In this document: piece by piece, positions 46,661 to 58,700 of the stretch | How the letters are laid out: each line of letters opens with the position of its first letter | How positions within the stretch are numbered: the stretch's first letter is position 1 | From: Octopus vulgaris | Taxonomy: Eukaryota | Direction: 5' to 3' | DNA length: 64,000 bases | Assembly (NCBI GenBank): GCA_951406725.2 | Contig: OX597838.1 | Span: 19,530,001 to 19,594,000 of the forward strand | Made by a program: the position numbers and the translations under genes | The notes under the pieces: generated by a model | Database searches by the model: none | Told to the model about the DNA's origin: nothing | Seen by the model: only the letters and a program-made list of their open reading frames with translations

Positions 46661-46862
46661 TATACTTTTCTCTTTGTGAGCTTTTATATGTACAGTTCGT
46701 CCATACGTAATAATCGCAATAATCAATCTCTGTTGTATGTAGATAATGTTATGTGCGTGTGTGTGCTTGTGTATGTGTGTGCGTGCGTGCGTGCGAGTAT
46801 GCATGTGTGTTTAATATTTCTACAATATGGAGGAGACAAGTCAGAAAATTGACAAAGTTTTA

Positions 46863-47756
46863 TTAAACGTTTGAATAGTCAATCTGAGAAATACAGTTGT
46901 TTTCTTCTCCATAGTATCTCGCTTGCGCTGAACTATATTTCGTTTCTTTAGAAGCTGCTTTGAGTAACTCCAACATACGCTTATGAAGAGATATTAACTC
47001 CTTCTCTTCTCCAGTGTAAGGAGTTAGAATTGATAAATCAGAAAGCCATTCATGATGAAGCTTCAAAGCTATTATTCCTGTGTGGAGAGCAGCTGTCGCT
47101 ATGAGGCTCGGTTTGTATTGAGATTTGACACAAATAATGTCATCATATTGCGATAGTTCTAATATATAATTGGTTATACAATATAAGTCGTGAGTCGCTT
47201 TTAATTTGAGAATAACCCGGAAGTAATTAAAGAAAGTGTAAGGAGTAATGATTAATTTCCTAATATTGAAATGTTCATAGATCAAACTGCGTATCTTTTT
47301 AAGCTTTTCTTTTGACGATTCGGGGTCGACGCTTGACACTAAATTCATAAGCTCCTGCGCATCAGAAGTTTTCCCTTTGTATACCATATCGAATGAAACC
47401 GAGAGACAACTCGTCGCGATGCATTGCAGTTTTTTTAGGGGAATCCGTGGTAATTTTTTGCAAGACATGAATAAATCAAATAATGAAACAGCTAGGTAAA
47501 AGACTTCCTTAGAAGCCTTGTAACGATCGACGCAAGCTAACATCCAATTGATCAAAGTCAGACGATCATCTTTTCTGAAATCATGGCACTCGAAATAATT
47601 CTTAGCTTTCTTCTGATGATTTTCAGCTTCATATAGAGCAGATAACTTGAGATTAACAAGATTAAGTGACATTGTTACTCCCATAAAATGTCCAAATTTC
47701 TTCAGCTTATTTTTTAAAGTTTCATCAAACGGTTGAAAACTCGGTTTAAGGTTCAC
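46863..47756 (-). CDS. Divergent cyclin A/B-type protein (cyclin N and C domains), uninterrupted ORF; first ATG at 47684
   Basis: LYEAE...NYF...DRLTLINWM (MRAILVDWL box), EVFYLAVSLFDLFM (ETLYLAVNYIDRFL), KKLQCIATSCL, NYILELS, YKPSLIATAAL and TPYTGEE...KYSSAQARY. The track's start at 47756 is GTG, so the true start or an upstream exon is uncertain. Confidence 0.88.
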   Translation of the reverse strand: MNLKPSFQPFDETLKNKLKKFGHFMGVTMSLNLVNLKLSALYEAENHQKKAKNYFECHDFRKDDRLTLINWMLACVDRYKASKEVFYLAVSLFDLFMSCKKLPRIPLKKLQCIATSCLSVSFDMVYKGKTSDAQELMNLVSSVDPESSKEKLKKIRSLIYEHFNIRKLIITPYTFFNYFRVILKLKATHDLYCITNYILELSQYDDIICVKSQYKPSLIATAALHTGIIALKLHHEWLSDLSILTPYTGEEKELISLHKRMLELLKAASKETKYSSAQARYYGEENNCISQIDYSNV

Positions 47757-47914
47757 TGAAAGCTCTTAACTGATTATATATTACAGAGTCTTTTATGACG
47801 TAGTTGAAACGTGACAATTATTTTTACGGTATGATAGTTTTTTTCTTTTTAAATAAAAACAAACTTCACTAAATTAATATTTCGATAATGAAACGAAATT
47901 GTATTTTTTTATTT

Positions 47915-58139: not shown

Positions 58140-58700
58140 TTGGGTTGTCCGGAGTGTTCGTGCCGATTTTTAAAGGAAAGAAAAAGGTCAATAAATACTT
58201 GCCATTACATTTTTAATCAACCAAATATGAACCATTTTGTTGCACAATGCGTCTCCATCTTTCCTTTAACTTGAAAATACCCTCTTCCCAGAATTGAGGT
58301 GGCTTCATGGCAAAGAATCCATCAAGGTATCTTTTTACGTTATCCAAGGAATTGAAATTTTTACCATTAAGACTATTCTGCAGAGACTTGAATAAGGGGA
58401 AATCCGAAGGAGCAATATCTGGTGAATATGGAAGGTGGGGGTAACACATCCCAGCCGAGCTGCAGCAATTTTTCTCTGGTTCCCAAAGCATCAAGTGCTG
58501 AAAATGAACTTTCTTATCTTCCATGTTAAAGGGTTACAGAATTAACACAGGTTATAGGAACATAAACCTTCTTCCACGAAAAGATAGCTTAAACTGTGCT
58601 CTAAATGGAGTCAAATCCTATTTTATGGACTCAACCATGTTGTAAAATAAGTCGAAAGGATAGCTACTATAAATCGGCATGAACTTTCTGGACAACCCAA
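58140..58700 (-). mobile_element. Internally deleted mariner element (561 bp) with TIRs and TA target-site duplication
   Basis: TA|TTGGGTTGTCCGGAGTGTTCGTGCCGATTT ... AAATCGGCATGAACTTTCTGGACAACCCAA|TA. ORF 58213-58524 has the mariner N-terminus MEDKKVHF.HLML and C-terminal YSPDIAPSD. Confidence 0.92.

Follow-up and report, generated by a model that had tools for sequence, protein, structure and literature searches.

The window that we analyzed is a 64,000-nucleotide stretch of the Octopus vulgaris genome, and it contains a single-exon gene for a divergent A/B-type cyclin-fold protein on the reverse strand. From stop to stop, the open reading frame spans 46863-47765 (-; 300 codons), and it ends with a TAA stop codon at 46865-46863 (-). 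Translation from the first ATG, at 47684 (-), gives a protein of 273 amino acids (46863..47684, -), and we number residues according to this form. A second ATG at 47672 (-) gives a 269-residue form; orthologues and other relatives use this start, and the 269-residue form is identical to the database protein P0155. Another database model of the same gene, P0004 (174 amino acids; 46866-47387, -), begins at Met100, directly after Asp99, so it omits most of the first cyclin box.

The preliminary description had read this frame as a cyclin, and comparison to Pfam agrees: the protein matches Cyclin_N (PF00134; 47286..47639, -; E = 6e-14, with 52.3 bits against a cut-off of 23) and Cyclin_C (PF02984; 46881..47246, -; E = 1e-09). 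These were the only families above their cut-offs, and no F-box family was found in Pfam at E values of up to 1. There is no match in the protein to the destruction-box pattern RxxLxxxx[NEDQ] (D-box) or to the KEN pattern; across the 11 sequences of the gene's family (see below), such patterns occur in just two, and only within the second cyclin box. The protein begins at the equivalent of residue ~171 of cyclin A2, with a predicted N-terminal helix (residues 7-21; 47622..47666, -) that corresponds to the helix preceding the cyclin box in cyclin A. In cyclin A, this helix also contacts the CDK. Because nothing lies upstream of the helix, the N-terminal arm of cyclins A and B (~170 residues) is absent from the protein. 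We saw no upstream exon, and splicing to one is possible.

Downstream of the reading frame, a 22-base element that contains ATTAAA (46806..46827, -) is probably the poly(A) signal within the 3' untranslated region. It is shared with a paralogue (L006), and its score was reached in none of 500 shuffles. We also considered a twin ACGT motif upstream of the ATG (47818-47792, -; two cores ten bases apart), which has a look-alike upstream of the paralogues on contig C4; it is not above chance, with the best scores reached in 42-203 of 500 shuffles. The cyclin frame is the only one in the window with a known protein domain. We compared 139 further frames (the longest of 155 non-repetitive candidates) to Pfam, and none of them matched a family above its cut-off. 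A 106-codon frame at 58213-58533 (-) has no Pfam match at E = 0.001; we take it to resemble a fragment of a mariner-type transposase.

To model the protein with AlphaFold2, we used an alignment of 150 rows that includes 139 canonical cyclins, and this gave a pLDDT of 95.9 and a pTM of 0.93; with the family's own sequences as the only input, the pLDDT was just 40. The model aligns to residues 172-429 of cyclin A2 with Z = 31.1 and an rmsd of 2.1 over 257 residues, and to cyclin B1 with Z = 30.0. The TM score to cyclins A2 and B1 is about 0.8 (0.77-0.84). The ESM Atlas led to ordinary cyclin clusters only, and its model of the 269-residue form has a TM score of 0.86 to cyclin A2. Overall, the protein is predicted to correspond to the folded region of a mitotic cyclin, which includes two cyclin boxes and the N-terminal helix but not the N-terminal arm. 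We found no support for a viral origin: the best viral TM scores were 0.64-0.68 (versus 0.77-0.84 for cyclins A2 and B1), and none of 194 pattern matches in viral contigs was confirmed.

The closest known structure is the C-terminal fragment of cyclin A2 (cyclin A3, residues about 171-432; PDB 3qhr and 1fin), which accounts for the entire model and shares its predicted two-box fold and N-terminal helix. Cyclin A2 is also the best sequence match of the family's profile (82.7 bits, versus 59.1 for B1, 51.1 for D1, and 41.4 for E1), and the equivalents of R211, W217, D240, Q254, and D283 are common to both. On the other hand, the two proteins are only about 20% identical. Unlike cyclin A2, the window protein lacks the equivalents of K266, E269, P272, L292, E295, L299, and F304, lacks the N-terminal arm, and has a net insertion of four residues between helices 3 and 4. 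It is encoded by a single exon, in contrast to the canonical cyclins of this genome.

The gene belongs to a family of six single-exon copies in this genome. The other five, at 43-48% identity, lie within ~130 kb of each other on contig C4. We found no further copies in 16 stretches of the C4 cluster region, in 3 stretches flanking the window, or in the window itself. Five of the six frames are open; the exception, L004 (G000:C4:103221471-103222286), has a TAG stop at codon 35. Because dN/dS between L004 and L005 is 0.30, we think that this stop is recent, is an allele, or is an assembly error. For another paralogue, L006 (G000:C4:103112456-103113259), two database proteins (P0006 and P0156) have a C-terminus of their own, which maps to a separate stretch ~4 kb downstream (L088:8340-8402), while reading the frame without splicing yields a C-terminus that resembles those of the other copies. 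This discrepancy is either alternative splicing or a gene-model error.

Outside this genome, close relatives with species names are found only in Octopus species and Argonauta, which are octopods; unnamed relatives (P0009 and P0157-P0160) are 33-34% identical. Relatives down to 33% identity also have open frames. Among 1.84 billion representative sequences, there were six hits with E up to 1e-10, and all six belong to this single-exon cyclin-like family. With the threshold relaxed to E = 0.001, there were 329 matches; the best 150 of these, apart from the top six, have identities of 22-33%. The databases label family members "cyclin-B2-1-like" or "G2/mitotic-specific cyclin-A". We found no description of this octopod family in the literature, most subscription journals and supplements aside, and term searches of PMC6341066 and of a bioRxiv preprint (10.1101/2022.11.14.516384) found nothing on it.

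In a phylogenetic tree, the family forms one clade (support of 100/100) on a long stem. The parent was probably cyclin A, judging from the profile scores. In tree tests with 39 of the 150 rows, neither a clade with the A-like rows (p-AU = 0.41) nor a clade with the B-like rows (p-AU = 0.12) was rejected. The canonical cyclins of this genome appear as separate exons, and the genome also has a separate exon (L022) that we take to be cyclin F-like. Because the family is single-exon while the canonical cyclins lie in separate exons, we infer that the family arose by retrocopying.

The preliminary description had centered on two near-invariant residues of cyclins, Lys266 and Glu295 of cyclin A2, and had proposed that each was replaced in this gene by a residue of the opposite charge. 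Both residues are indeed near-invariant: in a MAFFT alignment of 11 family rows and 139 canonical cyclin rows, all 139 canonical rows have Lys at the first site and all 139 have Glu at the second. Among the family rows, none has the Lys, in either of the registers discussed below, and none has the Glu. The gene does have Asp99 (GAT; 47388..47390, -) and Arg132 (CGC; 47289..47291, -) where they had been read. The buried pair of the cyclin box, which had been described as retained, is conserved in all 11 family rows: this is Arg41 (R211 in cyclin A2; 47562..47564, -) and its partner Asp70 (D240; 47475..47477, -).

The equivalence of Arg132 to Glu295 is supported by both phmmer and MAFFT, and it fits the helix at residues 125-139 of the model. 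The equivalence of Asp99 to Lys266 stands by position in the model and fails by alignment. Specifically, phmmer, hmmsearch with the family profile, and MAFFT all set S265-K266 against a two-residue gap and pair F98-D99-M100-V101-Y102 with F267-E268-E269-I270-Y271. It is therefore possible that D99 derives from E268. In the model, helix 83-102 is unbroken, and counting along it from Q87 (equivalent to Q254) places D99 in the Lys266 slot. We infer that Asp99 likely occupies the position of Lys266; judging from the alignments, it may be the old E268 that was shifted by a deletion, instead of a reversal of Lys to Asp.

If we list the 11 family rows in a fixed order, the states at the Lys site are D, E, D, T, D, I, S, D, D, D, and T, and the corresponding states at the Glu site are R, R, H, F, Y, L, Y, Y, Y, H, and F. 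An acid with an Arg opposite is thus found in just two rows, which are the window gene (D/R) and its 90%-identical orthologue P0002 (E/R). Another orthologue, P0003, which is 80% identical, has D/H. Seven rows, from two subclades, have an acid at the Lys site, and opposite the acid are Arg (2 rows), Tyr (3 rows), or His (2 rows), each of which can donate a hydrogen bond. The three rows with Thr or Ile have Phe or Leu opposite, and the row with Ser has Tyr. In the six copies from this genome, the codons at the Glu site are CGC, TAC, TAT, CAC, CAC, and TTT, and these are linked by single-base steps. The pattern, as seen in three or four independent lineages only, hints at a possible coupling of these sites through a contact inside the protein, and in the window protein an ion pair between Asp99 and Arg132 is possible.

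These states also indicate the order of events. The acid is common to the clade of the window gene and the clade of the C4 tandem copies, which group together (support of 97/93), so the acid is older than Arg132. According to the tree, only the window gene and its closest orthologue have the Arg, which arose after they had split from P0003. The two charged residues that had been described are present at the named sites of the window gene, and a swap is not a property of the family (2 of 11 rows).

The pair is only part of what the family has lost. The equivalent of Phe304 of cyclin A2 is a Phe in 84% of the canonical rows and in just one of the 11 family rows; in the window gene it is Ile141 (47262..47264, -). 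The equivalents of E269, P272, L292, and L299 are kept in 1, 0, 0, and 1 of the family rows, respectively. More broadly, we considered 72 positions that are conserved in at least 60% of the canonical rows. The family keeps on average 16% of them within residues 98-146 (17 positions), versus 56% elsewhere (55 positions); this gives p = 0.0005, for a region that was drawn after seeing the data. Conservation within the family is lowest in the blocks at 101-112 (0.39) and 125-136 (0.46). There are 40 invariant columns among the 11 rows, and E21 and Y30 are kept in all of the rows.

The groove of cyclin A that we take to dock RxL motifs (the MRAIL hydrophobic patch), via W217, Q254, D283, M210, E220, and R250, is kept in part. 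The equivalents of W217, Q254, and D283 are present in all 11 rows, and L214 is Leu, Val, or Ile. M210 is replaced by Asp or Asn in all 11 rows, E220 is replaced by Ala or Ser, and R250 is variable, so ordinary RxL docking is doubtful. From these substitutions, a changed docking motif seems more likely.

The consequences of losing the Lys-Glu pair can be gauged from other cyclins, as described in the available excerpts of four papers. The hydrogen bonds of K266 and E295 go to the backbone of the loop that precedes the PSTAIRE helix, and not to charged side chains (PMC3590450, in part); one would therefore not expect a swap to fit a CDK whose charges are reversed. At the equivalent sites of cyclin Y, K225A abolished CDK binding and E253R severely reduced it (PMC3590450, in part). 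In cyclin D1, K112E yields a protein that is kinase-defective yet keeps a non-canonical function (PMC12223508, in part). These engineered cyclins were altered at the same sites as the octopod family, including from Lys to acid and from Glu to Arg, and lost CDK binding or activation; they are single laboratory mutants, whereas the family's loss is natural, family-wide, and old. Also, a K266/E295/F304 triple mutant serves to disable CDK binding (excerpts of PMC12356897).

Cyclin folds without CDK contacts are already known, in cyclin F. Cyclin F (FBXO1) is the human case that lacks the Lys-Glu pair, and the excerpts of PMC6971155 and PMC12356897 state that it lacks these residues and binds no CDK. 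The window protein shares the cyclin fold without the pair; unlike cyclin F, it has no F-box, it is only about 270 amino acids long, and the acidic side of its RxL groove is altered. The atypical cyclins of Quandt et al. (excerpts of PMC6971155) are another comparison: they resemble the octopod family in having a divergent context around the pair and no known CDK, but they keep Lys-Glu (Arg-Glu in CCNG2), while the octopod family lacks the pair and has two cyclin boxes. The same excerpts propose the Lys-Glu pair as a criterion for being a cyclin; the octopod family has the cyclin box (PF00134) of that definition and not the pair.

Could the changes in the octopod proteins match a change in their kinase? 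The preliminary description had suggested an altered CDK partner, and the genome argues against this, as CDK1 and CDK2 have ordinary PSTAIRE segments and the pair would in any case meet the CDK backbone. CDK2 (P0168) is identical in three Octopus species. A search of the genome with CDK2 gave 78 matches at 30 loci, and we found no single-exon CDK with an altered PSTAIRE among the 19 + 6 of the 78 matches that we examined. By their motifs, the long single-frame matches are presumably p38-like, CDK9-like, and other kinases.

To quantify selection on the window gene, we compared it to contigs from a sequencing run with another organism code (X5), which we guess to be RNA. There are 40 listed differences, of which 19 are synonymous and 21 are non-synonymous, and dN/dS is 0.30 (p = 0.0004 against neutrality). 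The two contigs carry 46 differences, and dN/dS would be 0.22-0.39 if the 6 unlisted differences fall either way. The differences include D99E, which is also the state in P0002, and we did not count this as independent. The window gene is under purifying selection, in line with the preliminary description, which had read the frame as intact and not decaying. Between paralogues, dN/dS is 0.43-0.51 for pairs that include the window gene. The rest of the family is mixed: among the four tandem copies on C4, dN/dS is 0.66-0.91 in five of the six pairs (all but L004/L005), so this cluster evolves fast.

The X5 contigs cover 46893-47115 (at a depth of 4040) and 47152-47642 (at a depth of 5403), and the depth on the unique flanks of the gene is 0. 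If X5 is RNA, as we guess, then this pattern, which is seen in X5 alone, fits a transcript of the window gene. In runs X1-X3, the frame is covered in pieces at a depth of 2.6-3.9, which could be DNA that was carried along.

The window gene is thus a member of a family of single-exon proteins with a predicted cyclin fold, so far named in octopods only, that lacks the Lys266, Glu295, and Phe304 contacts and the N-terminal arm. We consider it likely, at about an even chance, that its protein works without activating a CDK, as a stable adaptor or a sink. Both invariant residues are gone from all 11 rows, and a CDK-independent scaffold or a decoy is the best of the readings that were originally offered. 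In the proposed scenario, a stretch of cyclin A (or cyclin B) mRNA that encodes the cyclin boxes would have been retrocopied and then duplicated at the DNA level, and CDK activation would have been lost across the family. The protein would be stable for want of a destruction box and would bind a non-kinase partner via its remodelled surface. Its action might be limited to certain cells, for instance those of the germ line, which is a guess from the general behavior of intronless, fast-evolving duplicates. Arg132 would be a late change at a site that had already been freed from CDK contact, and at most it would stabilize a local ion pair with Asp99.

A more ambitious version, which we hold tentatively and at somewhat below an even chance, is that octopods made a mitotic-cyclin retrocopy into an expanded, CDK-free cyclin-fold family that acquired a new partner other than a kinase and that serves a single cell type, for which germ cells are the most plausible candidate. 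Such a family would form a natural "pseudo-cyclin" lineage that arose independently of, and in parallel to, cyclin F. What remains of the Lys-Glu site would be a contact within the protein, made by Asp-Arg in the window protein and by Asp-His/Tyr or Thr/Ile-Phe/Leu in its paralogues.

The loss of the Lys-Glu pair does not prove that CDK activation is lost, because p35 activates CDK5 without sequence homology to cyclins (excerpts of PMC6971155). The window protein might still activate CDK1, CDK2, or an atypical CDK through an interface that was remodelled to do without the pair, and the whole fold is predicted to be intact, including the N-terminal helix, with E21 and Y30 invariant in the family. 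We think that this is unlikely. A new, fixed interface should be conserved, yet the CDK-facing stretch is the most variable part of the family (101-112 and 125-136), and no single-exon CDK with an altered PSTAIRE turned up among the matches that we examined.

Alternatively, the protein might be a competitive brake on cyclin-CDK activity, if it binds a CDK weakly but does not activate it. A protein with the N-terminal helix and no destruction box could do this, the kinase defect of cyclin D1 K112E is in keeping with it (excerpts of PMC12223508), and the high depth of the X5 contigs is what a stoichiometric inhibitor would need. But cyclin Y needs the same sites for binding itself and not for activation alone (excerpts of PMC3590450), and the face varies between paralogues although CDK2 is identical in the three Octopus species. 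A brake of this kind thus strikes us as less probable still.

It is improbable that the family is just a set of weakly constrained retrocopies, with frames held open mostly by selection on folding and with little specific function. The high dN/dS of five of the six tandem C4 pairs, the TAG stop in L004, and the long stem branch would all fit with this. However, dN/dS is 0.30 both for the window gene and for L004/L005, five of six copies and relatives down to 33% identity have open frames, and 40 columns are invariant among the 11 rows. Least probable of all is that Lys-to-Asp and Glu-to-Arg are compensatory changes that preserve the function of the pair, perhaps for a CDK that has changed as well. 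In favor of this, the model places D99 on helix 3 and R132 on helix 5, where the pair would be, P0002 keeps an acid plus Arg, and all seven acid rows have R, H, or Y opposite. Against it, Arg is present in only two of those seven (and of all 11) rows, P0003 has D/H, the acid predates the Arg and may be E268, the equivalents of F304, L292, L299, E269, and P272 are also lost, the pair binds the CDK backbone (PMC3590450, in part), and PSTAIRE is unchanged.

What makes the gene interesting is the family-wide loss of the CDK face and not a compensatory charge swap. If a stable cyclin-fold adaptor or sink is the right reading, then octopods would provide a second natural example, beside cyclin F, in a conserved and expanded family from which all three CDK contacts and the destruction arm were lost independently. 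With this family, one could test directly what role a cyclin fold has when no kinase is involved, and whether swapped residues can stand in for the original pair. The annotations also call for correction, as the current names ("cyclin-B2-1-like" and "G2/mitotic-specific cyclin-A") imply CDK activation.

Other intronless signalling genes in this genome occur in clusters as well. Four near-identical tandem single-exon frames of ~308 amino acids lie at G000:C8:72.22-72.27 Mb (L027-L030) and are cyclin T-like; L027 matches Pfam's CycT2-like_C (E = 3e-35) and Cyclin_N. Unlike the octopod single-exon family, these frames retain the Lys and the Glu. Three single-exon kinases with a TGY activation loop lie at G000:C10:83.39-83.48 Mb (L047-L049), and we take them to be divergent copies of a p38 MAPK-like gene. 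Together, the two cyclin clusters and the kinase cluster suggest that intronless signalling genes have expanded repeatedly in this genome. Finally, a 335-codon open frame at G000:C21:32.04 Mb (L035) is presumably a complete single-exon TFIIB-like gene.
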